Assembly (NCBI GenBank): GCA_000092065.1
Contig: CP000588.1
Strand: one strand, 5' to 3'
Origin: Ostreococcus lucimarinus
Lineage: Eukaryota
Length of the DNA: 64,000 nucleotides
The position numbers and the translations under genes are program-made. The notes beneath the pieces are model-generated. The model had not been told where the DNA came from. It worked only from the letters and a program-made list of their open reading frames with translations, and searched no databases. This document shows, in pieces, positions 13,010-28,700 of the stretch; the first letter of the stretch is position 1, and every line of letters starts with the position of its first letter.

Positions 13010-16000
13010 CTACTCGTCGGCGGGTTTGGCGGATTGCACGCGCATGGCGGGCTTGGATAATAAGCGACCGGTGCCGCGGCGTATACCCTCGAGCTCGGCG
13101 CGATGTTTGCCTGTGATTGGTTTCGCGCGCTCGCCCGCGGGTGGGCTGGTGTCGAAACGCATGTGCTTGTTCGGTCGCGCGAGCGATGGGCTCGACGGCG
13201 GTTCGTCGGCGTTGACATCACTCAAGATGCGCCGTGCTGTGCCCATGGTTCCCGGTGTCTTCCCAGGAGTGCGACCTGCTAATGGTCGCTTCACCGCGGG
13301 CGTGCGCGCGGTCGTCTTCGAGACGCTCGGTGGCGGTTCGATGCCCTTGAGTTGTGCGATTTCAGTCTTGGCCGCGTGCAAGGCGACTTCGAGAGACTCA
13401 ATGCGCGATCGCGCGGTGGAGTACTTGCTCCTCGTAGCCTGCGAAGACTTGTTTGCTTCATCAACGTCGTGCATGAGCGCCGTGACCTTGGCCTCCATCT
13501 CTTGCGCGCGTTCTTCCGCTCGCTTGCGAGCCGCCTTGGCGGAGTCCAAACGCGCATCCGATTTCGCGTGCGCGTCACCATCTGCGGTCGCGTTGTCGTT
13601 CGCGGCGAGCTTTCGCTCCAACTTTGCAATTTCTGCGTCCTTGAGTTCCATTTCCTCGTGTAGCTTACGAATTTGAGCTTGTGCGGTCCCTGCGGCGGAG
13701 AACTCAGCCGACGCAGCAGATTTCGCTCGCGAAATCTCTTCTCGCGCCGCAGCGAGTTTCTTTTCGGCGTTTCGAATGTCCGCTGCGAAAGCTGAGCTCA
13801 ACAGGCTCTTCTGCTCTTCTAACGCGACGGAATGTTCTTCGACCAGCTCGGTGCGCACGGCGTCTTCTGTCTCTGCACGCGCCCTTCTCATCTCAGCGAG
13901 CTCGTTTTCGAGATCTGTGATTTGAGACTTGTACTCGCGCTCTAATTCCTCCATCGTCTTCGTGTGCTCTTCGTTCAACGCCGCCAACTCATTGGCGTGC
14001 GCGTCCGCTGCCGACGTCGACTCTGTTTGTTCGAGCGCGTTCGCGAGACGTGCTTCCACGTCCGCCATGGCCTCTGCGTGCTTGCGCTCGAGTGCCTCCA
14101 AGGCTTCCGCCTGCGCGGCGTTTATCTTCTCAATCTGTTCCGAGAACGCTTGCGCTTGCGCCGCGAGTTTCGACGTGTGCGCGTCTACAAGCTCGACTTT
14201 CGCATTCGCCATCTCTTCGCGTAACGCGTCCATTGCCCGAGTGTGGCCCTCCTTGAGCGCATCGATCGCACGAGTGTGCTCTGCTCGCGCCGTCGCAGAC
14301 TCACCCGCGAATTTCGACTCGAGTTCGCCCGCTTGTTTCTCCAAAGCCGCCTCGTGCGCTGCACGCTCGACTTCGAATCCCCCCTCCACGTCGAATTTTA
14401 CACTCGCGAGCGCTTCTTCGTGTTTGCGCGCAAGAACCTGCAGTTCGGCGACGTGCGCAGTCTTAAGCTCGGCCATCGCCGCTTCGCCCGCCTCAGTCGC
14501 GGCGCCTACGGCAGCTTCGAATTCAGCTCGTTTCTTCTCCAGCTCGCAGTCGTGCTCAGCCTTTTGAGCGCTCAGCGCTGAATCTATTTTGCATTGCATC
14601 GTTTCCAACTCCGCCTTGGCCGCCGCGAGCGCGTTGGTCGTTTCTTCGTACGACGAGTTCGCACCCGCCGCCTTGGCTTCGGCGAGCTCGACGCGCGCCT
14701 CGAGCTCGGCTCTATCCTTGTCAGCTTGCACCTTGTGCGCCGCGAGCACTTCGAGCTTCGAAAACATCTCTTCCATCACTTCTTTGTTCTCTTCAAACGT
14801 CGCTTGAACGCGTGCGCGGTCGGCTTCCGCAGATTCCTTGGCCATCTTGTGCTCGTTCTCCAAAACTTCCGCCGCGAGTTGCGCCGCGCGAACGTTTTCC
14901 GCAGTCTCTTCGCTCGCCAACGCGCGACGCTCGGCGGCATCGGCAGCGGCTTGGAGAACTTGATTTTGCGCCTCGATGTCATCCAATGATTTCAAGGCAG
15001 CCGCTTTTTCGTCGAGCGCTTTGGCCGTAAGTTCGCCCTCAGCGATGACGAGCTTGCGCAAATCCTTCAATTCCTCCTCGGCGGTGGCTAAACGTCCGCG
15101 ATTGGCGGAGCGCTCATTCTCGGCTTGAAGGCGATCGGCGCGCTCTTGCAACGCCGCGAGTTCGATGCGGACGCGAACGACCTCGGGTGGGTGTTCGTTC
15201 TGCTTTCGAAGCTCTTCAATCTCCGCATTCACCGACTCTGGCGTTAACTCTTTGCGCTTGAGCGCCTCGTCGCGTAAACGAATCACCATCTTGGCGGATT
15301 GCAAATTCTTGTCCAAACACGTGCATAAATCCTTGGCGTGCTCGAGTTTGCTCTTCAGCTTCGCGAGCTCTTCTTCGCTATCCTTTGCCGCAGCCGCGGC
15401 CGCGCGATTCGCCTTCGCCATGATGGCTTCGAGTTCGACAATCTTCGCTCGAGCGTCGACGTCGTTCAAGCCGCCGCCACCCTCGGCGAGGAGCGCTCGC
15501 AAACGCCCAACCTCAGCCGCGAGCTCGTTCGCTGATCCGACGGATTCTTCGTTCGCCACTGCGCGGACTTTCACAAGCTTGGCGCGCTGGGCGAATTTCA
15601 GCGTAGACATTGTCTCCTCCACGTTCACATGCGCCGGCGAGACGCACGCGAGGAGCGTGCAGCGCGCGCGTCCGCCGAGCGCGTCCTTGAGCAAAAACGT
15701 CAACTTGGAATCGCGGTAGGGCACGTGTCGTTCCTTGCCGTCGGCCACGTCCACGAGGGCTTTGATGACGTTCCCGAGCGCGCTGAGCGATTTATTAATC
15801 GCGCTCGCCTCTTTCAAACGTTCACCTGCCGCGTCCGTGCTCTTCTGCCGCTCGCTCCCTGCGAGATCGACCAAGTGCAAAAGCGCGCTCTTTTTTGTCG
15901 TCGGCGCCGTGGGATGCGCCTTCGTGCGCGATTCCACCGAAATCGTGAACACGCTGTGCGAACGCGAAGAATCGGCATTCATATTCGTCTGACCCACCCT

Positions 16001-16846
16001 ACGATTCGCCGCACCGCGCAAAAACGTCTCGTACGTCTGCTCCGCCCCGTGCACGCGCTCCTCGTGCAAATTCTCCACAAACGTGCCTCGCTTGGCGTCT
16101 TCCCGCACGTTCGGCGCCGGTCCATCGTGCTCGGTATTCATCAACAAATCTCGCAACGTCTCGTTATAAATCTCCAAATACGAGCACTTCACTTCGATTT
16201 CGCACGCCCCGCCCGCTTCGATTGCCGCGTTCCTCGCCGACTCGCATCGCTCAAACAATCGCTTCAGCGCGCGCGGAATCAACCCCGCGTTCGGCGCGTC
16301 CAGCGCGTCCCCCTCCGCCCCTCCCGCCTCGCCCGGCGACATCATGACGCAATCATCGTCACCCTCAAACCCTCCGACGTCGTCGTCGCGATCTAAATCC
16401 ACGCCTTGCATCGAGTACGTCTTCCCCGCGCCCGTCTGCCCGTACGCGAGCACGCACCCGTGATACCCCTCCACCACGCCGTCCACCGCGTCGCGTCCGA
16501 CGCGTTCGAAAATCTCCTCCTGCGCCGACGACTGATCGCACACGTGGTCGTACGCGAAACTCAGCGCCGCCTTGCCCGCGACGCTCTCGCGGACGCTCCC
16601 GCGCTGGAGCGTCAGCGCGTTCGTCCCGTGCGTCTGCACGCACGGCGCGTAGCCGGCATCGATCTCTCTCGCGTTCGGCGGTCGCACGCGCACGAGCACG
16701 CGCACGGTGTCGTGGACGTCTCGCTCGACGTCGTGCGTCATCGCCTCGCGCGGTGCGCGCGCGCCGAGGGCGAGGCGCGTCGACGTGTGCGGCGATGCCG
16801 ACGCCGAGGGGAACGAAGCGGAACTTAAACCGACTTTTTTCCTCAT
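13010..16846 (-). CDS. Kinesin-like protein with an N-terminal motor domain and a ~900-aa coiled-coil stalk
   Basis: Motor motifs VRVLVRVRPPN, GYHGCVLAYGQTGAGKTYSM (P-loop), SSRSHSVFTISVE (switch I), LHLVDLAGSER (switch II), followed by a long Ala/Glu/Lys-rich heptad region. The ORF extends to 17056; internal Mets at 16846 and 16741 are more likely starts. Confidence 0.9.
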   Translation of the reverse strand: MRKKVGLSSASFPSASASPHTSTRLALGARAPREAMTHDVERDVHDTVRVLVRVRPPNAREIDAGYAPCVQTHGTNALTLQRGSVRESVAGKAALSFAYDHVCDQSSAQEEIFERVGRDAVDGVVEGYHGCVLAYGQTGAGKTYSMQGVDLDRDDDVGGFEGDDDCVMMSPGEAGGAEGDALDAPNAGLIPRALKRLFERCESARNAAIEAGGACEIEVKCSYLEIYNETLRDLLMNTEHDGPAPNVREDAKRGTFVENLHEERVHGAEQTYETFLRGAANRRVGQTNMNADSSRSHSVFTISVESRTKAHPTAPTTKKSALLHLVDLAGSERQKSTDAAGERLKEASAINKSLSALGNVIKALVDVADGKERHVPYRDSKLTFLLKDALGGRARCTLLACVSPAHVNVEETMSTLKFAQRAKLVKVRAVANEESVGSANELAAEVGRLRALLAEGGGGLNDVDARAKIVELEAIMAKANRAAAAAAKDSEEELAKLKSKLEHAKDLCTCLDKNLQSAKMVIRLRDEALKRKELTPESVNAEIEELRKQNEHPPEVVRVRIELAALQERADRLQAENERSANRGRLATAEEELKDLRKLVIAEGELTAKALDEKAAALKSLDDIEAQNQVLQAAADAAERRALASEETAENVRAAQLAAEVLENEHKMAKESAEADRARVQATFEENKEVMEEMFSKLEVLAAHKVQADKDRAELEARVELAEAKAAGANSSYEETTNALAAAKAELETMQCKIDSALSAQKAEHDCELEKKRAEFEAAVGAATEAGEAAMAELKTAHVAELQVLARKHEEALASVKFDVEGGFEVERAAHEAALEKQAGELESKFAGESATARAEHTRAIDALKEGHTRAMDALREEMANAKVELVDAHTSKLAAQAQAFSEQIEKINAAQAEALEALERKHAEAMADVEARLANALEQTESTSAADAHANELAALNEEHTKTMEELEREYKSQITDLENELAEMRRARAETEDAVRTELVEEHSVALEEQKSLLSSAFAADIRNAEKKLAAAREEISRAKSAASAEFSAAGTAQAQIRKLHEEMELKDAEIAKLERKLAANDNATADGDAHAKSDARLDSAKAARKRAEERAQEMEAKVTALMHDVDEANKSSQATRSKYSTARSRIESLEVALHAAKTEIAQLKGIEPPPSVSKTTARTPAVKRPLAGRTPGKTPGTMGTARRILSDVNADEPPSSPSLARPNKHMRFDTSPPAGERAKPITGKHRAELEGIRRGTGRLLSKPAMRVQSAKPADE

Positions 16847-17518
16847 TCCCCTCGTCGAACGGCGCGCGTCCCGCACTCCGACGCGCGACGAGCTCGACGA
16901 CGACCGAGAAAGATGTTGGGTAAAACGCTCAAGTTCCAAGCGCTCGTCATCGCGCTCGTCGCGGTGTCGTGCGTGATCGAAGACGGCGCGCAGGCGATCG
17001 CGAAGAAGATTACGCGATGCGTCGTGCGCGACTTTACGTTGGCGACGGTGTCGCACATCGCCGCGGGAGCGGCGAGTTCGACGAAGAAAGCGTTGGCGAA
17101 GGTAATGTTACTTATGCATGCGTTCTCCCTGTTCGACGTGTACGTGCGCGGGAGCTCGTGCTGCCCGACGAAGCTCATGGCGGCGCAGGCGTGCGCCGGC
17201 GCGCTCGCGTACGGGTTGTACGGCGGCGCGTTACCGATCCCGAAGATCGGTGGTGGTAAGAAGAAGTCGGCCAAGAAGTCGTCGTCTTCAGCCAAGAAGG
17301 CGACGCCCAAGCGTGCGAGCTCGAGATCGAGCTCGAGATCGCGAAAGTGAGCGACTCGTCCCGACGACGTCGATCGACGCGCCCGGGACCCGCGCGCGGA
17401 CGATTTGAACAAGAAGTCCGTGGTCATCATCACCGATTTTATCTATTCCAAACGAAAGCATCTACTTAATCTAAACAGCACTGCGTGTAACGATAAGCGA
17501 GAAGACGTGTTGAATCAA

Positions 17519-18460
17519 TCACGCAGCGAACGCGGGCATCTGACTCACGACGACGCTCGCGAGCGCTGCGCGAGCGCCCCATCGCGCCGCCTTCGTCAAT
17601 GCTTTGAGCGGGACATCCGCCAACGTTTCCGTCGTGCGCTTCCCACCGTCGCTCGCCACGGCGGTGAGCGCCCAGGCGATGACGAGTGCGTACACAGGAT
17701 CGCCCGTCGTGAGCGTCACCGCAGCGCCCAAACCGCCCGCGCCGAACGCCGAGAGAAACGCCGTCGCGAGCTGCGTGTCCGGCGCGCACGTCTTCGCGAC
17801 GTGTGAGTTCAAGTTCACCAACGCCGCACATGAAATCCAACCGAAGTGCATCGACAGAGGAACGTGCGTCGTCCAATACCACGCCTTGCTCGCCGCGCTC
17901 GCCGCGGCGCGCAGCGCTCGGTGCGCCGAACCCAGCGCAACCGCCTCGGCGACCAACAACGCGCTCGACACCCAAAAGTGTCTAGGCGCCTTGGCCCACG
18001 GTCTGAACGCCGCGCACCACAACGCTTGAAACGCACACGCGAGCGCCCAGCTCGGCGCGACGGCGCGCGTCGCCGCCTCGCTCGCGCCGCCTCCGCTCGC
18101 CGACGCCAACGCGTGCGCCACCAGCGCGAACTCTCCGGCGTAAATCGCCCCCCAAATCGCGAACGCCCATCCCGCGGGCGTGAACAAGCTTCGGTATTCG
18201 CTATCGAGCGGAATCGCGTGCGTCTTCTCCTTCGCGTTTTCATCCTTCGCCTTCGCGGCGCGCGCCTCGGCTTGCGCGCGTCGCTGCATCTCCCCGTCGA
18301 TTCTGCCCGGCACGCTCACCGCGAGCACGTTGACGCCGTACGCGAGCGCGGTGACGAGTTGCCATGGCTTCAACCCCGCGAACGCGCGCGCGGACGCGGA
18401 GGCGATCCTGCGTGGAGAACACGCGGCGTCGGTCAGTACTGGAGGAGTGGATAGAGCCAC
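17519..18460 (-). CDS. TspO/MBR-like tryptophan-rich membrane protein
   Basis: FTPAGWAFAIWGAIYAGE matches the TspO PxxWxFxxxWxxLY motif. WYWTTHVPLSMHFGWISCAALVNLN matches the distal VPYLxWxxxAxxLN motif. It is Trp-rich with about five predicted TM helices. Confidence 0.5.
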   Translation of the reverse strand: MALSTPPVLTDAACSPRRIASASARAFAGLKPWQLVTALAYGVNVLAVSVPGRIDGEMQRRAQAEARAAKAKDENAKEKTHAIPLDSEYRSLFTPAGWAFAIWGAIYAGEFALVAHALASASGGGASEAATRAVAPSWALACAFQALWCAAFRPWAKAPRHFWVSSALLVAEAVALGSAHRALRAAASAASKAWYWTTHVPLSMHFGWISCAALVNLNSHVAKTCAPDTQLATAFLSAFGAGGLGAAVTLTTGDPVYALVIAWALTAVASDGGKRTTETLADVPLKALTKAARWGARAALASVVVSQMPAFAA

Positions 18461-18635
18461 GCGGGACGCCGGGACGGAACGTACCAGGGCGCGAGCTTAG
18501 CGACCGCGAACGTCGCGGCGGCACCCGTGGCGCATATGAGCGCAGCGGTGACGTCGCGAGCGGCGTCGGGCATCGGAAGGCGCGCGCGCGCGAAAGTGTG
18601 GGGCGGAGACTGCGCTCGACTACAAGGCTACGGGC

Positions 18636-19913
18636 TCAGTCGGCGAAGACGGATTGCAAGCTCGGGAAAGGATCCGCCTTGGACAACACCAAGACGCGGT
18701 TCTTGTGCGATATGTAGCCCTTGATGAACTTTCTAAAGATCAAGTTGGCGACGATGCACTCGACCTCGTCGAGATCGACGTCGTCGGCGCCGCACCACGC
18801 GAGGGCGGTTTGGAATTTGGCGAGCGAGACTTGGTTCGCCTTCGCCGCGTCGGCGGTTTCGCCGTGAATGGCGTGCACTTTCTTGAACAGCGTGCGGTAG
18901 ACGGACATGCGAAGCTTTTCGAGGATCAGATACGTGCCCTGTTTGATGAAAGTCGATTCACCGTCGCTGAGGGCGGCGTCGAGCGTGCGCGCGTCGCCGC
19001 GGCGCATCGCCTCGACGACGTCGACAAACTCTCGCAACTCGTACTTCTCCAGTAACTTTCGCGACGGCAGCGTGCCTAAAATCAACTTCACCGGGATCAA
19101 GTACTGCAAAATCAATCGCACGTTCCGCGCGCTCTGCGCGTGACAATGCGCGAACGCGTACTCAAGATGCTCCGCCGCGCGCTCGTACGCGTCCTCGAAC
19201 ACCGCCAACCGCCCGACGTAAAAGTTATACGTCACCTTTTCCGACTTTGGGAACGAATCGAACGGCAAAAACGTCGGCAAGTTCACGGCGTTGATCAAGT
19301 TCTTGCACAAATGCAGCGCGTTGAGCTTGAAGTACACCTTGAATAGATTATTCACCACGTGCAACTGCGGCGCCTTCTTCTCCGCCGTCGACGTCTGCGA
19401 CACCGCTCTGTACACCAGCATCAGCGTCGACCCGGCGTCGGCGAGTTTGCTCGGTTTTTCCCCCCCGCGCTTCAGCGCCTCATCCGCGCGCTGCGCCAAC
19501 GCTCTCGCGTCGTCCACCGCGACGTACCACGCCTCGCTCGTCCACGCCGAGTCCTCGTCCGCCCTGTACGCCTTCACGAAATCCTTCACCCCTCTCGCGT
19601 GCGCCTCGTACGCGCGCACCGCGTCCTCGTCCCTCCCGCTTCCCGCCAGCGTCCGCGCGCACGCGAACGCCCCCATCGCGTCGTCCCACGGCGCGCGCAC
19701 GCCTCGCTCGCGCATCAGCGTCGCCGCGCGGTCGCAATCCGAACCGCACGCGCGCGTCCACGTCGCGTCGTCCTCGTCGCGCTCGCGCGTCGTCGACGCG
19801 CCGGCGTCGACGCACGACGCGAGCGCGCGTCCATCGCGTCGCGCGATCGCGTCTCGACACCGCGCCGCGCGCGCGTCCATGCTCGCGCCGGCGTGTGCGC
19901 CGCGCGCGTCCAT
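18636..19913 (-). CDS. PCI-domain protein, PCID2/Thp1/CSN12 family (TREX-2 type)
   Basis: LHVVNNLFKVYFKLNALHLCKNLINAV...YNFYVGRLAVFEDAYERAAEHLEYAFAHCH...LILQYLIPVKLILG...ECIVANLIFRKFIKGYISH is collinear with CSN12/PCID2 helical repeats plus a winged-helix PCI end. The N-terminus is built from a short direct repeat (MDARGAHAGAS/MDARAA). Confidence 0.7.
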   Translation of the reverse strand: MDARGAHAGASMDARAARCRDAIARRDGRALASCVDAGASTTRERDEDDATWTRACGSDCDRAATLMRERGVRAPWDDAMGAFACARTLAGSGRDEDAVRAYEAHARGVKDFVKAYRADEDSAWTSEAWYVAVDDARALAQRADEALKRGGEKPSKLADAGSTLMLVYRAVSQTSTAEKKAPQLHVVNNLFKVYFKLNALHLCKNLINAVNLPTFLPFDSFPKSEKVTYNFYVGRLAVFEDAYERAAEHLEYAFAHCHAQSARNVRLILQYLIPVKLILGTLPSRKLLEKYELREFVDVVEAMRRGDARTLDAALSDGESTFIKQGTYLILEKLRMSVYRTLFKKVHAIHGETADAAKANQVSLAKFQTALAWCGADDVDLDEVECIVANLIFRKFIKGYISHKNRVLVLSKADPFPSLQSVFAD

Positions 19914-19922
19914 GCTCGCGTC

Positions 19923-20250
19923 GGCGAATCGTCCGACGGCCGGCGCCGCGCGCGCGAGTCCCCTCTTTACGAGTCATGACCCATTGAGACATTGTTCTAA
20001 ACACCCGATCTCGTACACGACGCGCGTCTCGTACACGACGCGCGAAAACGCCCATTAAAAGTCGTTAGGACGGCGAATCGTCCGACGGCCGGCGCCGCGC
20101 GCGCGCGTCCCCTCTTTGTGAGTCATGACCCATTAAGACATTGTTCTAAACACCCGATCGCGCGTCTCGTACACGACGCGCGAAAACGCCCATCAAAAGT
20201 CGTTAGGACGGCGCGCGCGCGCGCGCGATCGGCGGCGAATCGTCCGACGC
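19923..20250. repeat. Tandem duplication (~2.2 copies of a ~148-bp unit) in the PCID2/NADP-MDH divergent promoter
   Basis: The unit GGCGAATCGTCCGACGGCCGGCGCCGCGCGCGCG..GTCCCCTCTTT..GAGTCATGACCCATTRAGACATTGTTCTAAACACCCGATC...CTCGTACACGACGCGCGAAAACGCCCATYAAAAGTCGTTAGGACG occurs at ~19923-20072 and ~20073-20210, with a truncated third start at ~20228-20250. Copy 1 has an extra internal 18-bp duplication (TCTCGTACACGACGCGCG). Confidence 0.85.
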
Positions 20251-20299
20251 CGCGCGCGACCGCGGAGCGCGACGCGCGACGACGACGACGCGAGCGGCG

Positions 20300-20395
20300 A
20301 TGACGACGACGATGACGACGATGACGACGACGATGACGGCGCGCGCGACGACGACGACGCGCGCGCGAACGACGACGACGACGACGACGACGCGG
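20300..20395. repeat. (GAC/GAT/ACG)n trinucleotide microsatellite
   Basis: gacgacgacgatgacgacgatgacgacgacgatgacgg ... gacgacgacgacgacgacgacg in the 5' region of the NADP-MDH ORF. Confidence 0.9.
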
Positions 20396-21625
20396 GCGGC
20401 GATAGGTCGACGACGCGCGCGCGAACCGAACGCGCGACGACGCGGAGACGCGTGCGTGCGGTACAACACGCCCGCGGGCGTGGGGAGGAAGGCGGACGAT
20501 CCTCTGGGGGTGTTCAGGCTGGAGTACGACATCTCGATGGACGAGGCGCATCGACCGAAGACGTGGAAGCCGACGGTCACGGTGGCGGTGAGCGGCGCGG
20601 CGGGGCAGATTTCGAATCACTTGTTGTTTAAGATCGCGAGTGGGTCGGTGTTCGGACACGATCAGCCGGTGGTGTTGAGATTGCTCGGGAGCGAGCGGTC
20701 GAGACAGGCGCTGGAGGGGGTGGCGATGGAGCTGGAGGATTGCTTGTTTCCGTTGTTGCGCGAGGTCGACATCGGCATCGACTGCAGGAAAGTCTTCGCG
20801 GGCGCGGATTGGGCGCTGTTGATCGGGGCGAAGCCGCGTGGACCGGGGATGGAGCGCGGAGATTTGCTTGAGATGAATGGGGCGATTTTCGTCGATCAAG
20901 GCAAGGCGTTGAACGAGGTGGCGAAGCCGACGTGCAAGGTCATCGTCGTCGGGAACCCTTGCAACACGAACGCGCTCATCGCGCTGTCGCACGCGCCCAA
21001 CTTGGATCCGCGCAACTTCCACGCGTTGACCAAGCTCGACGAAAACAGAGCAAAGTGTCAACTCGCGCTCAAGGCGGGCGTGTTCTACGAAACCGTGAGT
21101 AACGTCGTCATTTGGGGCAACCACTCCACGACGCAGGTGCCGGATTTCGTCAACGCCAAGATCGACGGTAAGAAAGCCACCGAAGTCATCACCGATCAAG
21201 ACTGGCTCGAGAACGACTTCACTCCCGCGATTCAAACCCGCGGCGGGTTGCTGATCAAAAAGTGGGGTCGCTCTTCCGCGGCGTCCACGGCGGTGTCCAT
21301 CGCCGATCACATCAGAAATTTGGTCAACCCGACGCCGGAGGGCGACTGGTTCTCCACAGCCGTGCTCAGTAACGGTAACCCGTACGGCATCCAAGACGGC
21401 ATCGTTTACTCCTTCCCGTGCCGCTCCAAGGGCGATGGTTCGTACGAAATCGTTCCCGGTTTAGAAGTGAACGACTGGCTTCGCGAGCGCATGAAGAAGA
21501 GCGAAGAAGAGCTCACCAGCGAAAAGGGCTGCGTCGGCCACCTCGTCGGGGAAGCGCACGTTGACGTCCCAGACGCAGGGTGCCCGGTCGATCTCGAAGA
21601 CACTCTTTTGCCAGGTGAAATGTAA
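20300..21625 (+). CDS. NADP-dependent malate dehydrogenase, plastid type
   Basis: [21 protein letters not shown] (NADP Rossmann), [39 protein letters not shown], and the C-terminal extension with a Cys pair (EKGCVGHL...PDAGCPVD) typical of thioredoxin-regulated NADP-MDH. The 5' codons are (ACG/ATG)n microsatellite ([11 protein letters not shown]), so the true start is probably downstream. Confidence 0.85.
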
Positions 21626-21959
21626 GCGGCACACGCGAGCAGATGAAAAGAGTCCCGTTGACTCGTGCGCTCGCTCGACGCAACTTACGCATATTGAATC
21701 AAAACCACATCGTTGCATAACCATTTCAATAACATCAATATTCTGGTATAATAACCAACGCGACCACTGCGCGCGCCGACGAGAAAATTCGCCGCGTTCA
21801 CCGTCGGCGGCGAGGCGCACGGGGTGGGCGAGGTGCGAAGACGATGCGTCGCTCGGAGAGGCTTCGTTTGATTATGGTTAATACAACTCGGAAGATTTGA
21901 AAAAATAATTTGAACTCGAGCGCGTTTCCGCGAGTGAAACGACTTGAGTTAGTGTCGGT

Positions 21960-22808
21960 TTAGTTTAAAGGTTTACGGCAGACGAAGACGCCCCACGCGA
22001 AGACGCCGTGATCGCGTTGAGTGTCCGCGCGCTCGGTGAGCGACTCGAGCCAATTGTCGAGGTACTTATCCGTCAAACCCTTGGAGAGCATCTCTTCGCG
22101 ATGGGTGTGAATCTGCTTGATCATGTCGCGGAAATACGTTTCCAAGTGATTGCTGCCGTCCCACCACGTGACGTAATCCAGTCCGGCATCCTTCATGCAC
22201 TGCAGGTACGTGGACGGGCGACCCATCACCGTGGTGGCGTTGCGATCGGTGAATCCCTTGAGGGTCTTTTCATCGGCGCCGTCGGCACCCATGATGTCCG
22301 AAAACACGAACGCGGCGCCCGGCTTCAACACGCGCGCGACTTCTTTGAATAATTCGGGCTTATCGCCGGCGTGGCACAACACCTCGCACGACCACGCGCC
22401 GTCGAACGAATTCGTCCAATCCGCCGGAAACGGCTTGTTAATGTCCCCGACGACCGCGTCGACGAGATCGCCCAGGCCGAGCTCCTTCGCCTTGGCGATG
22501 TTCTGCGCGTTTTGTCCCGGTCCAATGTTATATCCCATCACCGAGCATCCGTACTTCTTCGCCAACGCGTGCGATCCGCCGCCGTGCCCGCTTCCGATGT
22601 CCAGCAACTTATCCCCCGCCCCGATCGGTCGCGCCATGTCCAACTGCGTCATCATCCACGCCGTCGTCGCCGCGCTCGACTCGCGCACCCCATCTTTCGC
22701 GTCTCTGTAGATACCAAAGTGAATATCGTCACCACCACCGCCCATGACGATCGTGTAAAACAGTCGCTGCTCGGCTTCGTCGTACTGCTCGAGCACCATC
22801 TTCCCCAC
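21960..22808 (-). CDS. Class-I SAM-dependent methyltransferase, resembling sarcosine/dimethylglycine or phosphoethanolamine N-methyltransferase
   Basis: Motif I LLDIGSGHGGGSHALAKKYGCSVMGYNI, motif II DLVDAVVGD, post-II FDGAWSCEVLCHAGD, motif III LKPGAAFVFSDIM. The whole protein is 282 aa. Confidence 0.6.
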   Translation of the reverse strand: MGKMVLEQYDEAEQRLFYTIVMGGGGDDIHFGIYRDAKDGVRESSAATTAWMMTQLDMARPIGAGDKLLDIGSGHGGGSHALAKKYGCSVMGYNIGPGQNAQNIAKAKELGLGDLVDAVVGDINKPFPADWTNSFDGAWSCEVLCHAGDKPELFKEVARVLKPGAAFVFSDIMGADGADEKTLKGFTDRNATTVMGRPSTYLQCMKDAGLDYVTWWDGSNHLETYFRDMIKQIHTHREEMLSKGLTDKYLDNWLESLTERADTQRDHGVFAWGVFVCRKPLN

Positions 22809-23094
22809 CTCCTCCTTGTCGAACTGTTTCCCGACGAAATCAGCCTGCGAATCGCGCGACGCGATCGTTCGTCAGTCTCGCTTCGCGCGCGCGTCGTCGT
22901 CGTCGTCCTCCGCGCCGTCGCGCGCCGCCGAAGCGTCGCGACGTCGCGACGTCCCGATCGCCGTCGTCGCCGTCGGTTTATCCGGCGCTCGCGTCGCGCG
23001 CGCGTCGCGTCGGCGCGCGCGCGTCGCGTCGGCGCGTCGCGCGCGCGCACCATGATGCGCGTTCGCCGTCTCGGTCGCGATCGAGCGCGTCGCG

Positions 23095-24081
23095 GTGTGC
23101 GCGCGCGACGCGACGCTTCGCTTCGGTCGTCACAATCGACCGCGACGGTTCGCGACGCGGCGACGCCGCGCGACGCCGCGCGAGCCTCGCGCGCGCGCGC
23201 GGCGACGACGACCGCGACGCATGAGCGTGCGCGCGCGCGCGGCGGCGTTCGCCGCGGGAACGGCGCGACCGATCGACGGCGACGCGCCGGCGACGCGCGA
23301 GGACGCGCGCGCGCGAAACGCGACGAGGACGACGACGACGACGACGACGACGCGCGACGACGCGACGACGGAGGGCTCGGGGACGCGCGTCGACGCGTCG
23401 ACGGCGCGCGCGCGAGGCGCGGCGACGCGCGAGGAAGGCGCGAGCGGGACGCGCGGCGACGCCGCGCGGTTCGAGCGCGCGTTTGAAAAGGCGTGCGACG
23501 CGTTGGCGCTCGCGCGGGCGATCGAGGCGACGGTGCGACGGGAAACGGTTTGGACGGGACGAAGCTCGGCGCGCGAGCGCGCGCGGGCGAGATCGTTGGC
23601 GGCGGAGCGGGCGTACGAAGCCGTCGCGGAGCGACCCGGCGTAACCGTCGACGCGAAGCGCGACGAACGCGCGAGGCCGGCGTCGAGCGGTCGAACGACG
23701 GCGACGGCGCGCGAGGAGGAAGATACGTCGATGAGTGTCGTGCGGTCGTTTTCGTTCGCGCGGGACGAGGTCGACGGTGACGATGGCGACGTCGGCGACG
23801 CGGACGCCGACGAAGACGAACCGTCGCGAGAGGCGTTCGAGGACGACGGCGGCGAATCAGGCGCGCTGCGCGAGATCGCGCGCGCGCGTCGCGAGATCGC
23901 GAGCTTACTCGCCGACTCTCGGAGCGACGCCGCGCGCGGCCGTCCACGACGCCTCGACGCGGAGACGCCCGCGGAGACGCGAACCGTCGCCTCGCCGAAT
24001 CGCCGCGTCGAAAAAACCATCGTCATGGATCGAATCGCCATGATCGACGGCATCTTAGCCGCGCTCGCGGAGGATCGATGA
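23095..24081 (+). CDS. Hypothetical acidic low-complexity protein (uncertain)
   Basis: High-GC3 frame ending ...SPNRRVEKTIVMDRIAMIDGILAALAEDR with an Asp/Glu-rich tract. At least three other long ORFs overlap it on both strands, and it contains a (GAC)n microsatellite at ~23335-23365. The frame choice is tentative. Confidence 0.2.
   Translation: MCARDATLRFGRHNRPRRFATRRRRATPREPRARARRRRPRRMSVRARAAAFAAGTARPIDGDAPATREDARARNATRTTTTTTTTRDDATTEGSGTRVDASTARARGAATREEGASGTRGDAARFERAFEKACDALALARAIEATVRRETVWTGRSSARERARARSLAAERAYEAVAERPGVTVDAKRDERARPASSGRTTATAREEEDTSMSVVRSFSFARDEVDGDDGDVGDADADEDEPSREAFEDDGGESGALREIARARREIASLLADSRSDAARGRPRRLDAETPAETRTVASPNRRVEKTIVMDRIAMIDGILAALAEDR
23335..23365. repeat. 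(GAC)n microsatellite
   Basis: gaggacgacgacgacgacgacgacgacg. Confidence 0.9.
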
Positions 24082-24221
24082 TGCGTTCGGTCGTGTCGTA
24101 TCGTATCGCATCGCGACGCAACGCGCGTCCATCTTCGCGGCGCACCGTGTAATCTACTTCTAGAGTCTATAGCCCGCGACGGCTTCGCGACGCGCGTCCC
24201 CGGCTCGCCTTCGCCCATCTC

Positions 24222-24632
24222 TCAGTCCTCTCCCATGCGAAACCCGATCGGGTCTCGATGCGCCCCCGTTCCCAGGCAATCCATGCACACGCTTCGTCCC
24301 GAGCCTCGGCAGTCGACGCACCATCGCGGCCACGCGCCGCGCGCCTGCACCTCGCCGTCCCGTCTCGCGTTCTCCCGCCCTCGCGCCTCGCACCGCGCGC
24401 ACGCCCGCGTCCCGAATCCATCGCACGCCGCGCACGTCCTCTTACCCTCGGGCGTCGCCCGCGCGCGCTCGAACGCGCGCGGGCGCGCCCACGTCGACGC
24501 GTCGTCGTCGTCGTCGCTCGCGGCGCGCGGCGTCGCGCGCGGACGCGCACCGCGCGGCGTCGCGCGCGCGCGGCGACCGGCGACCGGCGCGGCGACGACG
24601 ACGGCGCGCGGCGCCGCGCGCGACGTCGCCAT
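24222..24632 (-). CDS. Small DnaJ-type zinc-finger protein with four CxxCxGxG repeats, BSD2-like plastid assembly factor
   Basis: MATSRAAPRAVVVAAPVAGRRARATPRG... (transit-peptide-like), then CAACDGFG / CARCEARG / CVDCRGSG / CMDCLGTG. It is ~136 aa and lies at the 3' end of the artefactual 710-aa ORF 24222..26354. GC3 is strongly biased in this frame. Confidence 0.5.
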   Translation of the reverse strand: MATSRAAPRAVVVAAPVAGRRARATPRGARPRATPRAASDDDDDASTWARPRAFERARATPEGKRTCAACDGFGTRACARCEARGRENARRDGEVQARGAWPRWCVDCRGSGRSVCMDCLGTGAHRDPIGFRMGED

Positions 24633-24744
24633 GCGCGTCGACGCGCGCGCGCGGTGCGCGTCTCCGCGCGCGACGACCACTGGCGACATCACAACACGGC
24701 GCGCGCGCGAACGCGGACGAACGCGCGCGCGGCGCGCGGACGCG

Positions 24745-25554
24745 ATGCGCGGACGAGCGATGCGCGCGTGCGCGGAGACGATCGGCGCGATGCGCCGCGG
24801 CGCGACGCGCGCGGAACGCGGCGCGATCGGACGGTGGTTGATTTCGAGCCGCGATGACGATCGAAGCGCTGGCGCGACGCGCGAGCGCGCGAACGCGCTC
24901 GAGACGCGACCGCGGACGTACGCCAACGCGTCGCGAGCGTTCGGGGCGTCGCGCACGGTGGAACAGTGGAGCGAACTCGCGGAACGGGGGGTGGACGTGA
25001 ATCCGTGCAATAGCCCGAAACACCCGGCGGCGCTGGCGGGAGTGCAGACGGCGTTCGACGCCGGACGCACGCGAAGGAGCCTGCAGGAGGCGTATGATCC
25101 GCATTGTATCGATTTCGTGTGCGGACGCGCGCACGACACGGCGGGGAAGATTGGATTGGTGTCGTATCGATGCGAAAACGAGGAAAACGTGCTCGAGTCG
25201 CACTTGAAGTTTCCGTCGCAGTACGAAGAGTTTCCAGGAATCATCGGACCGGCGATGTACGGCGTCGCGGCGAGCGCGCATGGAAATTGGGCGGCGTCGA
25301 TCGCGCTGATGGACCGCGCGATCCTACCGAGACCGCCGTTGGTGGCGGTGAAATCGCTCGCGGTGAGCGTCGTCGACTTGGTCGGTCCGGGCGAGCCCTT
25401 GACGTTACGATCGCGATTGCTCGAGGTCGAGGACGCGCGCGAACCGTTCCGCGTCGTCGTCGAGATCGAGATCAAATCCAAAGCCACGTCAAAAGTCGTC
25501 GCTCGAGCGGAGTGTTCGTACGAAAAAATCGGCGCCGTGCGTTCGATGCGGTGA
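24745..25554 (+). CDS. Hotdog-fold thioesterase-superfamily (PaaI/4HBT-like) protein
   Basis: GIIGPAMYGVAASAHGNWAASIALMDRA fits the HGG..A.L.D thioesterase motif. LVAVKSLAVSVVDLVGPGEPLTLRSRLLEVEDAREPFRVVVEIEIK fits the central beta-sheet. The ATG (24745, 24760 or 24790) is uncertain; upstream the ORF is low-complexity. Confidence 0.35.
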   Translation: MRGRAMRACAETIGAMRRGATRAERGAIGRWLISSRDDDRSAGATRERANALETRPRTYANASRAFGASRTVEQWSELAERGVDVNPCNSPKHPAALAGVQTAFDAGRTRRSLQEAYDPHCIDFVCGRAHDTAGKIGLVSYRCENEENVLESHLKFPSQYEEFPGIIGPAMYGVAASAHGNWAASIALMDRAILPRPPLVAVKSLAVSVVDLVGPGEPLTLRSRLLEVEDAREPFRVVVEIEIKSKATSKVVARAECSYEKIGAVRSMR

Positions 25555-25755
25555 TATCGTCCAACGCTCTTCGCTCGCCGCGGCGACGCCCGAGCCCCGA
25601 CTTCGACCTTCCCCGATCCCGCGCGATTCCCTTTCACCGTTTTGTACGCTGTTGTACCGTGTATAGCCGTCATCATGTAGTTTAGAGCAGCACGCACGCT
25701 CACGCTCGCCGGTTCGCCGACGCCCTCGCGCCGCTCTCGGGAAACCCTTTCACCC

Positions 25756-28700
25756 TTGGACCATCGCGCCTCCTGCCAGCACACGCGCGCGCGCACGACC
25801 GTCCTCGACGCGTCCCGCGCGCACGTGGACACGCGCACATCGTCGACGTCGACCGCGCGCGCGATGCCGCACGCCGTCGGCGCGCCGCGCGGCGCCGCCG
25901 CCGCGATCGGGACGAAAAGGTGGGCGAACGACCATCGACGCGACGTCGCGCGAGCTGGACGCGTTTCGCGCGCCGCGGGACGACGCGCGAGCGCGTCGAA
26001 CTCGGTGACGTCCGTGGACGTGCGCGCGCGCGCGCGCGCTGGGGCGGTGCGACGGAACGGTGGAGACGCGCGCGACGTCGCGGCGGCGGCGGCGAGCGAC
26101 GAAGCGGCGACGGAGCGAGCGGGCGCCGCGGCGCGCGAGGGGGTCGTCGCGAAGGCTGGTAAGAGCACCGTGAACGTCACGAACGCTGGACCGAGCTTGG
26201 AGAGCATTCTGCGATCGAAGAGCGGGTTTACGAAGATTTTGTGCGCGAACCGCGGAGAGATCGCGGTTCGAGTGTTTCGAGCGGGGACCGAGTTGGGGAT
26301 GCAAACCGTGGCGGTGTTCGCCGAAGCCGATCGACAGTCGACGCATAGGTACAAATCCGATGAATCGTACGAGGTCGGTCACGGCAAGGCGCCGGTGGCG
26401 GCGTATTTGGATTACGAATCCATCATTCGCTGCGCCAAGGAGAACGGGGCGCAGGCTATTCATCCGGGCTACGGATTTTTGAGCGAAAACGCCGCCTTTG
26501 CGCGACGATGCGAGGAAGAAGGGATCGTGATGATCGGGCCGAAGTCGCAAACGTTGACGGAGATGGGCGATAAGGTGATCGCCAAGGCGAAAGCGAAGGA
26601 GTGTGGGTTGCCGCTCGTGCCGGGGACTGAAGAGGCGACGGCGGACGTCAACGATGCCTTGGAATTCGCCAAGGAGTTCGGAATGCCAATCATGCTCAAG
26701 GCCGCGATGGGCGGTGGTGGTCGCGGTATGCGTGTTGTCAAGGAGTACTCCGAGCTCGAAGATGCGTTCAAGCGCGCTTCGAGCGAGGCACAGACTGCGT
26801 TCGGCGACGGGAGAATGTTTTTGGAACGTTACGTCGAGGCGCCGCGACACATCGAGGTGCAAATTCTAGCCGACAACTACGGTAACGTCGTTCACTTGGG
26901 CGAGCGCGATTGTTCCGTGCAACGTCGTCACCAAAAAGTTGTCGAGTTGGCGCCCGCGCCCAACCTTGACCCAGTGCTTCGCCAAAGATTATTTGACGAC
27001 GCCGTGGCGCTCGCCAAGCATGTCAACTATCGCAACGCCGGCACGGTGGAGTTCATGGTTGATAAGCAAGGGCGTCACTATTTTTTGGAAGTGAACCCGC
27101 GCATCCAAGTAGAACACACTGTGACGGAAGAAGTCACTGGGATCGATTTGGTGCAATCGCAGATATTGATCGCAGGTGGTCAAAAGTTGTCCGACATCGG
27201 TATCAAGTCCCAAGACGACATTCAGCTTCGCGGCTTCGCGATGCAGTGCAGAATCACCACCGAAGACCCGTCCATGAACTTCTCTCCGGATTTCGGCAAA
27301 GTTGAGGTCTACCGTCCTCCGGGCGGTATGGGTGTGCGTTTGGATGGTGAAGTCGTGGTCGGTTCGCGAGTGTCACCCAACTACGATTCGCTCCTCGTCA
27401 AGCTCACGTGCTCGGAGAAGAACTTTGAAGCAACCGTGCAAAAGATGTATCGATCGCTCAATGAATTCCGTATTCGCGGCGTGAAGACAAACATTCCGTT
27501 CCTGATGAACGTTTTGTCCAGCGAAACGTTCTTGAGCGCGAACTTTGCCACGGACTTTATCGATAGCACTCCGAGCTTGTTCAAGTTGGACTCGTACATC
27601 GATGACACGCAGAAGCTTCTCAATTACCTCGGTGACGTTGCCGTGAACGGTTCGTCGCACCCTGGTGCGGTCGGTCCCGCGCCGACGTGCGCGGAACCGC
27701 CAGTTCCCGAACCGAAGAAGTCTTTAGCGCAGCTCAAGGACACCGGGTTCAAGGCTATTTTGGACAAGGAGGGTCCGGCGGCGTTCGCCAAAGCGGTTCG
27801 CCAGCACAAGGGCTTGCTCATCATGGATACGACGTGGCGGGACGCGCACCAGTCGCTCTTGGCGACGCGCGTGCGGACGCACGACCTTCGTCGTTCGGCA
27901 CCACTCACGCGAAGCGCCCTCAGTGGCGCGTATTCGCTTGAGATGTGGGGTGGCGCCACCTTCGACGTCGCGCTTCGATTCTTGCAAGAGGATCCGTGGA
28001 GGCGACTCGAGCTTCTTCGTGAGCAAGTGCCAAACATCCCATTTCAAATGCTTCTTCGCGGCGCCAACGCGGTCGGTTATACTTCGTACGCGGACAACGT
28101 CGTGCAAAGCTTCGTGCACCAAGCGCGCAAGTCTGGTATCGATGTTTTCCGCGTTTTTGACTCGCTCAACTACGAAGATAACCTCATGTTTGGCATCGAC
28201 GCCGTGCGCAACGCCGACGGCGTCGTTGAAGCGACAATTTGCTACACTGGTGACGTGAGCGATCCGAAGAAGACTAAATATACGCTGGACTATTATGTCG
28301 ACCTCACGACCAAGCTCGTTGAGCACGGTATTGATGTGCTCGCCGTGAAGGACATGGCTGGTTTGTTGAAGCCGCGCGCCGCGACGATGTTGATCTCCGC
28401 CATTCGCGCCAAGTTTCCCGACTTGCCCATCCATGTGCACACCCACGACACCGCTTCAACGGGCGTGGCTTCCATGCTCGCTGCTGCCGCGGCAGGTGCG
28501 GATGTTGTCGATGTGTGCATGGACGCCATGGCTGGCACGACGTCCCAACCCGCCATCGGCGCCGTGATCAACTCAGTCGCGGGCACCGAGCTCGACACCG
28601 GATTGGATATCGATGAAGTGCTCAAGCTCAACTTGTTCTGGGAACAAACGAGAGGTCTGTACTCTCCGTACGAGAGCGGTATTAAAAGCGGAAGCTCAGA

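Follow-up and report, generated by a model that had tools for sequence, protein, structure and literature searches.

Recurrent tandem duplication of a promoter unit between the divergent PCID2-like and NADP-malate dehydrogenase genes of Ostreococcus lucimarinus

A stretch of 64,000 nucleotides (nt) from Ostreococcus lucimarinus (contig CP000588.1 of the assembly GCA_000092065.1)—referred to as the window throughout this article—contains two divergently transcribed genes, one for a PCI-domain protein of the PCID2/THP1 type and the other for an NADP-dependent malate dehydrogenase, separated by a spacer in which one sequence unit is present twice in tandem. The question raised by this locus is what the duplicated unit represents; the initial annotation of the window offered a duplicated cis-regulatory module, a minisatellite and a terminal piece of some dispersed repeat family. 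The reading favoured here, which we consider probable, is that the core of the bidirectional promoter has repeatedly undergone tandem duplication through microhomology; the duplication, segregating in wild O. lucimarinus, doubles a candidate binding site conserved across the genus and gives each of the two genes a proximal copy.

The two copies of the unit are arranged head to tail with no spacer between them. In a global alignment they are identical at 133 of the 138 aligned positions (96.4%), being distinguished by five substitutions and one 11-nt indel, so that the identity becomes 89% if the gap is counted; the corresponding blastn E-value of 5e-55 is far beyond chance. The indel is due to the 18-nt sub-repeat TCTCGTACACGACGCGCG, which occurs twice in copy 1 (20009-20044; period 18, 2.0 copies and 100% match in Tandem Repeats Finder) and once in copy 2 (20165-20182). 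Both the near-identical tandem copies and the doubled internal sub-repeat described by the initial annotation are thus confirmed. Two segments of the unit, GAGTCATGACCCATT and GTTCTAAACACCCGATC, are confined to it in the whole window, the former being present only at 19971 and 20120, with up to two mismatches allowed (0.06 expected), and the latter only at 19994 and 20143, even with two to three mismatches. A single-copy unit measures approximately 138–157 nt, its core being richer in AT and both its left end and its right flank rich in CG; the alternating (CG)n tract that borders copy 2 on the right has matching CG-rich tracts in the left part of both copies (19944-19955 and 20093-20106). The initial annotation also recognized the truncated start of a third copy. 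The 16-nt sequence in question, a repeat of the first bases of the unit, is real; single-copy alleles, however, have it or a variant of it after the unit as well, and it therefore represents an ancestral flank repeat rather than a decayed third copy. The junction seen in the window was formed without the use of this repeat.

With regard to its position, the unit (19922-20208) lies between the divergent start codons—the ATG at 19880 or 19913 for PCID2 on the minus strand and the ATG at 20300 for the malate dehydrogenase on the plus strand—and occupies more than half of the bidirectional intergenic spacer of about 240 nt. Both copies lie upstream of the gene next to them, copy 1 at a distance of 9–42 nt from the start codon of PCID2 and copy 2 at a distance of 92 nt from that of the malate dehydrogenase. 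Since only 9–42 nt separate it from the PCID2 start codon, the unit must include core promoter or 5′-untranslated sequence.

Copy number in the wild was followed in environmental contigs of the locus, gathered by exact-protein look-ups and a DNA scan of metagenomes and designated here by L-numbers. Among the 20 contigs resolving the region, 16 have one copy (L001, L002, L004, L006, L007, L008, L009, L012, L022, L026, L042, L045, L081, L084, L085 and L086) and four have two or more, i.e. alleles with one, two and possibly three copies co-exist in the sea. The contig L082, an independent assembly, contains two copies joined by a junction, GTTAGGAC/GGCGAATCG, identical to that of the window, so the window allele is real and not private. 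Two copies are also present in L041, albeit with a second type of junction, a period of 162 nt and the spacer GGCGCGCGCGCGTC kept; L018 combines the L041-type junction with a third type having the spacer GGCGCGCGACGCGTC; and L003 has two copies with a scaffold gap between them. Five more contigs are broken or N-gapped within the unit, as expected of assemblers struggling with repeated alleles. A comparison of each junction with haplogroup-matched single-copy alleles places the exchange within the 5-nt CGGCG in the window type, within the 11-nt CGCGTCGGCGA in the L041 type and within a (GC)n run in the third type; all the junctions fuse the right flank of the unit to the left flank inside short GC-rich homology. 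Because there are three different junction sequences, the duplication happened at least three separate times. The proneness of the region to slippage or duplication, already suspected by the initial annotation, is borne out by this variation in wild copy number, by the at least three junctions and by nearby micro-duplications of 18, 9 and 33 nt that are also polymorphic.

Concerning the sequence motifs, the near-palindrome of the unit, GAGTCAYGACYC, is composed of two inverted GAGTCA half-sites, and its conserved core is the 12-mer G[AG]GTC-NN-GAC[CT]C (G[AG]GTCNNGAC[CT]C), found in the window in the two copies of the unit only (0.2 expected). The divergent gene pair is syntenic in all the Ostreococcus lineages fetched—exhibiting PCID2 identities of 96% (L076), 83% (L075), 72% (L071 and L077), 66% (L072), 64% (L080) and 63% (L078)—and also in Micromonas-like relatives (51–55%). 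At this promoter L071 has two instances of the 12-mer, one of them being the exact reverse complement of the window 14-mer; L076, L077 and L078 have the 12-mer as well, and L080 has a version with one mismatch. The spacers of the lineages with 63–72% identity cannot be aligned with that of the window despite the shared 12-mer. In the lineages possessing it, the 12-mer is usually followed by GAGTCCC(C)T 5–6 nt further on, and in the window it is preceded by GAGTCCCCTC at a distance of 5 nt. In addition, a multi-lineage alignment showed that the right half of the unit contains three blocks kept in L076 and L075, i.e. within the lucimarinus clade, and absent in the deeper Ostreococcus lineages. 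The 12-mer and the three blocks are thus conserved in orthologous promoters beyond neutral expectation. Filling more than half of the spacer and carrying a motif conserved in orthologous Ostreococcus promoters, the unit would correspond to the duplicated cis-regulatory module proposed by the initial annotation, and the palindrome may most simply be regarded as a transcription-factor binding site. The converse picture, also outlined there, of a unique unit with invariant copy number and no conserved motif does not fit, since the copy number varies and the motif is conserved.

It should be pointed out that this motif is not the one emphasized originally. The initial annotation had placed the AP-1/GCN4-type heptamer TGAGTCA within GAGTCATGACCCATT of each copy, which is incorrect, as GAGTCATGACCCATT does not contain the heptamer and only copy 2 possesses it (20119), copy 1 having CGAGTCA. 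The heptamer is found in most wild haplotypes (CTGAGTCA); outside the window lineage, L077 alone has an intact version (TGACTCA), the other lineages having imperfect ones that usually begin with C or G (CGAGTCA, GGGTCA). No enrichment of TGAGTCA/TGACTCA was seen in the 64 kb, with six occurrences against 4.1 expected from shuffles. The 12-mer can indeed be read as two abutting imperfect heptamers, TGAGTCA/TGACCCA, reminiscent of the basic leucine zipper (bZIP) site TGA(C/G)TCA; with the heptamer in one of two copies, no enrichment and the 12-mer as the conserved core, the AP-1/GCN4 label is, however, not established and indicates a resemblance only. The word GAGTC/GACTC was also considered as an avoided one, based on 92 occurrences versus 178 ± 13.5 expected from dinucleotide shuffles; this idea was abandoned, its depletion ranking only about 33rd among 512 pentamers and probably reflecting codon usage rather than specific avoidance.

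A composite of GACGAGTCAYGACYC followed by a CCCTCGAGGGGA-like palindrome was observed also in the divergent promoter upstream of a kinesin gene in L071 (6195-6235) and L077 (5565-5600). The orthologous kinesin spacer of the window (16846-16913) is without the composite and invariant in the population. Owing to its occurrence in the kinesin promoter of those two lineages, the 12-mer composite appears to be a reusable promoter element.

The diversity within the unit, evaluated in an alignment of 24 unit copies from 20 alleles, is distributed very unevenly. A 46-nt zone around the palindrome contains approximately 20 variable columns, several of them with three alleles, with the GAGTC and ACCC of the palindrome being invariant; hardly any variation is seen in the leftmost 34 nt and the rightmost ~50 nt of the unit. 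The nucleotide diversity (pi) reaches 0.09–0.12 in this zone, 15–25 times the diversity of third codon positions in the two neighbouring genes (0.002–0.007 for the same set of sequences); many contigs were picked by exact protein identity, which lowers the coding diversity, and the contrast holds in the five picked by DNA only. Four of the five substitutions between the window copies fall into the same zone. Among the 40-nt segments of the surrounding 11 kb (15300-26400), a single other one, at 25727-25771, is equally variable, and the spacer between the kinesin gene and a gene for a 145-residue protein is invariant. A further apparent peak at 19380-19419 turned out to be an artefact of the misaligned extra copy in L018. 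The hypervariability may reflect a mutational hotspot or selection. As to the segment 25727-25771, it is located upstream of a pyruvate carboxylase gene and consists of short ACCCTT(T/C)G repeats (pi of about 0.1–0.13), whose number and sequence differ in nearly every environmental haplotype.

The favoured reading draws on the structure and uniqueness of the unit, on its polymorphism and recurrence, and on the conservation of the motif. As for the mechanism, replication slippage or unequal exchange between the short GC-rich homologies surrounding the AT-richer core would generate the extra copy; the resulting two-copy allele would provide each gene with its own proximal copy, double the number of binding sites and be expected to raise or uncouple the transcription of one or both genes. 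Several points weigh against this reading. The palindrome is absent in L075, L072 and the Micromonas-like relatives—with PCID2 identities of 83% and 66% for the former two—so that the gene pair can evidently do without it, and wild haplotypes differ in its central and flanking bases. In L018 the third, partial copy is situated where the contig ends and might have arisen as a loop in the assembly. Most wild alleles have a single copy, which is compatible with a neutral or mildly deleterious duplication, and diverged copies of the unit lacking the exact 17-mer used in the scan described below could conceivably reside elsewhere in the complete genome. Finally, the regulatory consequence of the duplication is deduced entirely from sequence.

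The best surviving alternative, although rather unlikely in our opinion, is that of a neutral, minisatellite-like slippage product, in which the CG-rich self-complementary flanks make the spacer unstable and the extra copy is inert. The several independent indels within the same 400 nt (the 9-, 18- and 33-nt duplications and length changes of (ACG)n) speak for it, as do the breakpoints in short GC homology, the prevalence of single-copy alleles, the very high local diversity expected of a mutational hotspot and the second promoter with variable short repeats at 25727-25771. Against it, the unit is not inert sequence, as it holds the genus-conserved 12-mer together with the clade-conserved blocks and, from its distance to the PCID2 start, promoter or untranslated sequence, and the invariant kinesin promoter nearby indicates that not every spacer is unstable. 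The minisatellite label itself can be kept only in part: the unit shares with a minisatellite, or variable number tandem repeat, the head-to-tail arrangement, the GC-rich flanks and a copy number differing among individuals (at least two in the window, L082, L041, L018 and L003), but no single array of many units expanding and contracting was found among these alleles. There are one to three copies only, the common allele is unrepeated, and, because the three junctions differ, the multi-copy alleles represent separate duplications rather than one expanding array.

A more far-reaching possibility, which has to be viewed as doubtful, is that in wild O. lucimarinus selection of a diversifying or balancing type acts on the shared promoter, the enzyme of the chloroplast ‘malate valve’ thereby being tuned in cis among ecotypes. 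It is suggested by the repeated independent duplications and by the 46-nt hypervariable zone around the invariant motif core, both of which would fit; if it were true, natural alleles differing in promoter copy number would set expression in the manner of a rheostat, in a eukaryote that ranks among the smallest free-living ones.

The third option of the initial annotation, extended here to a fragment or terminal repeat of any dispersed mobile element—a miniature inverted-repeat transposable element, a long terminal repeat or a satellite family—that landed in the spacer and was then duplicated, is very improbable. It could be advocated from the 16-nt direct repeat GGCGAATCGTCCGACG bounding the unit and from the orthologous spacer of L072, which holds a possible ~1-kb insertion bounded by 121-nt direct repeats. 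However, blastn with both copies detected no further copy in the 64 kb, just CG-rich low-complexity matches, and a scan with the 17-mer GTTCTWAACACCCGATC returned 37 metagenome and 19 viral-contig stretches, only seven of these 56 being similar beyond the 17-mer and all seven representing the same locus with 98–99.6% identity to the window. The 19 viral contigs, without any extended similarity, are chance matches, and a viral origin was rejected. No terminal inverted repeats were seen at the unit beyond the self-complementary (CG)n runs. The right half of the unit is, moreover, conserved in place at the orthologous site in the sister lineages L075 and L076, which identifies the unit as resident promoter sequence and not an insertion. 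A dispersed repeat or transposon fragment is thereby ruled out as far as the window and the metagenome and viral scans reach.

Least probable of all is a duplicated small structured RNA gene (small nucleolar, small nuclear or other non-coding RNA) between the protein genes, for which the AT-richer conserved core in a GC-rich spacer and the 9-bp inverted repeat (TCGCGCGTC and GACGCGCGA) around TCGTACAC might be invoked, the latter, however, consisting largely of self-complementary CG runs, with Rfam at a permissive threshold yielding no match with E < 0.7 in the unit (the best far below the gathering score), ARAGORN no tRNA in it, and folding z-scores of −1.38 and −0.65 for the two strands being no better than those of shuffles. 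Both the mobile-element and the RNA-gene explanations are thus effectively excluded by the data at hand.

The coordinates of the features discussed are summarized in Table 1.

Table 1. Features of the PCID2–malate dehydrogenase locus (positions in the window)
Feature	Position	Strand	Description
PCID2/THP1-like (PCI-domain) gene	18636-19913	minus	longest open reading frame of 425 amino acids; Pfam PCI, TPR_PSMD3_N
Direct repeat with a period of 33 nt	19870-19920		CGCGCGTCCATGCTCGCG twice (19870, 19903); PCID2 5′ end
Promoter unit, copy 1	19922-20070		149 nt; PCID2-proximal copy
Promoter unit, copy 2	20071-20208		138 nt; malate dehydrogenase-proximal copy
Duplication junction GTTAGGAC/GGCGAATCG	~20066-20082		5-nt microhomology CGGCG at 20071-20075
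Near-palindrome GAGTCATGACCC	19971-19982		copy 1; preceding base C (CGAGTCA at 19970)
TGAGTCATGACCC, near-palindrome with full TGAGTCA	20119-20131		copy 2; sole full heptamer of the locus
Hypervariable zone	19955-20000 (copy 1), 20104-20149 (copy 2)		46 nt, from GAGTCC to GTTCTAAAC
Right half of copy 1	20001-20067		blocks ACACCCGAT, TCGTACACG-CGCGC and CCAT-AAAAGTCGTTA; copy 2 equivalent at 20150-20205
Alternating (CG)n tract	20209-20232		right of the unit; site of group II duplication breakpoints
16-nt repeat of the first bases of the unit, GGCGAATCGTCCGACG	20234-20249		ancestral flank repeat
NADP-dependent (chloroplast-type) malate dehydrogenase gene	20300-21625	plus	441 amino acids

Both flanking genes have the identities given by the initial annotation. 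The minus-strand protein contains the PCI domain, its homologues bear the names PCID2, THP1 and EER5, and its 90%-identity cluster includes XP_001419295.1 from O. lucimarinus CCE9901; the contigs with a protein identical to the latter are 97–99.9% identical to the window, which assigns the window to O. lucimarinus or a very near relative. Its conserved start is probably the ATG at 19880, giving 414 amino acids, because the N-terminus MDARAARCRDAIARRDG is kept in the sister lineages L075 and L076. The direct repeat noticed originally at the 5′ end of the gene was found as described; this polymorphic 33-nt duplication creates an extra in-frame ATG at 19913 (425 instead of 414 amino acids), and the repeat is present in one copy in L003, L009, L022, L026 and L041 and missing in L012. 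The contig L012 is without either PCID2 ATG, its gene being called at 346 amino acids, the same as in the RefSeq model of CCE9901. The next gene, downstream of PCID2 (17519-18460; considered also in L011–L014, L082 and L085), is called at 313 amino acids in the window and most contigs; in other conspecific contigs it is called as 284 amino acids plus a 46-residue fragment, which suggests an indel or frameshift polymorphism.

The plus-strand open reading frame scores 653 bits on TIGR01757, the model of NADP-dependent malate dehydrogenase (cutoff 598). An (ACG)n/(CGA)n microsatellite (20277-20392) encodes its threonine-rich N-terminus, presumably the transit-peptide region, and the called length of the enzyme differs among haplotypes and lineages (441, 442, 443 and 448 amino acids). 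In L078 (1700-2000), and also in L079, approximately 330 nt of non-coding sequence appear to interrupt the 5′ coding region of the enzyme between GVFRLAYDVSK and the conserved stretch that comes next; starting with GTGCGT, ending with TGTAG and being absent from the window gene, this sequence looks like a lineage-specific intron. As far as the spacer itself is concerned, that of L072 extends to about 1.6 kb, the repeats bounding its ~1-kb segment (1814-2923) being 75% identical to each other; the segment, possibly inserted or left over from a gene, contains two 69-nt tandem units (2291-2428) reading like MORN-repeat coding sequence.

The nearest analogues of the promoter duplication are the TR34/TR46 alleles of Aspergillus fumigatus cyp51A and the unstable promoter repeats of yeast. 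In TR34/TR46, a cyp51A promoter segment with a transcription-factor site is duplicated, the repeat unit being 34–46 nt long. The Ostreococcus locus resembles them in the head-to-tail promoter segment with a conserved motif, the co-existing repeat-number alleles and the independent recurrence; it differs in that its unit is much longer (138–162 nt), belongs to a bidirectional promoter and makes up most of the spacer. Unstable tandem repeats in yeast promoters reportedly tune expression, and the locus has in common with them a promoter sequence variable in copy number, an origin of slippage type and possibly the role of an expression ‘tuning knob’; the yeast repeats, however, form long arrays of short units acting mainly through nucleosome positioning, whereas the Ostreococcus unit is long and complex, has discrete motifs and is present in one to three copies. 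The gene pair also resembles conserved head-to-head pairs, its divergent start codons being ~240–420 nt apart and its synteny extending across Ostreococcus and the Micromonas-like relatives; compared with other bidirectional promoters, it is ordinary except for the duplication polymorphism and the local hypervariability. The duplication is a new example with nothing surprising in kind. The element was not described in the literature searched, the coverage of which ended short of the Ostreococcus footprinting by Piganeau et al. (2009), where the 12-mer may be included.

The genome of Ostreococcus is among the most compact eukaryotic ones, with spacers of about 200 bp, and to our knowledge very few cis-regulatory elements have been defined in it. 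In this context, the locus offers a natural allelic series of one, two and possibly three copies of a complete bidirectional promoter core, and it yields a candidate binding site, GAGTCAYGACYC, defined by its conservation across the genus. It also makes recurrent microhomology-mediated duplication visible directly in environmental populations and represents a ready-made natural experiment on promoter function in a minimal eukaryote. If the copy number alters the expression of the NADP-malate dehydrogenase, this would be a simple, testable regulatory adaptation in marine picophytoplankton; otherwise, the locus would be an ordinary unstable spacer.

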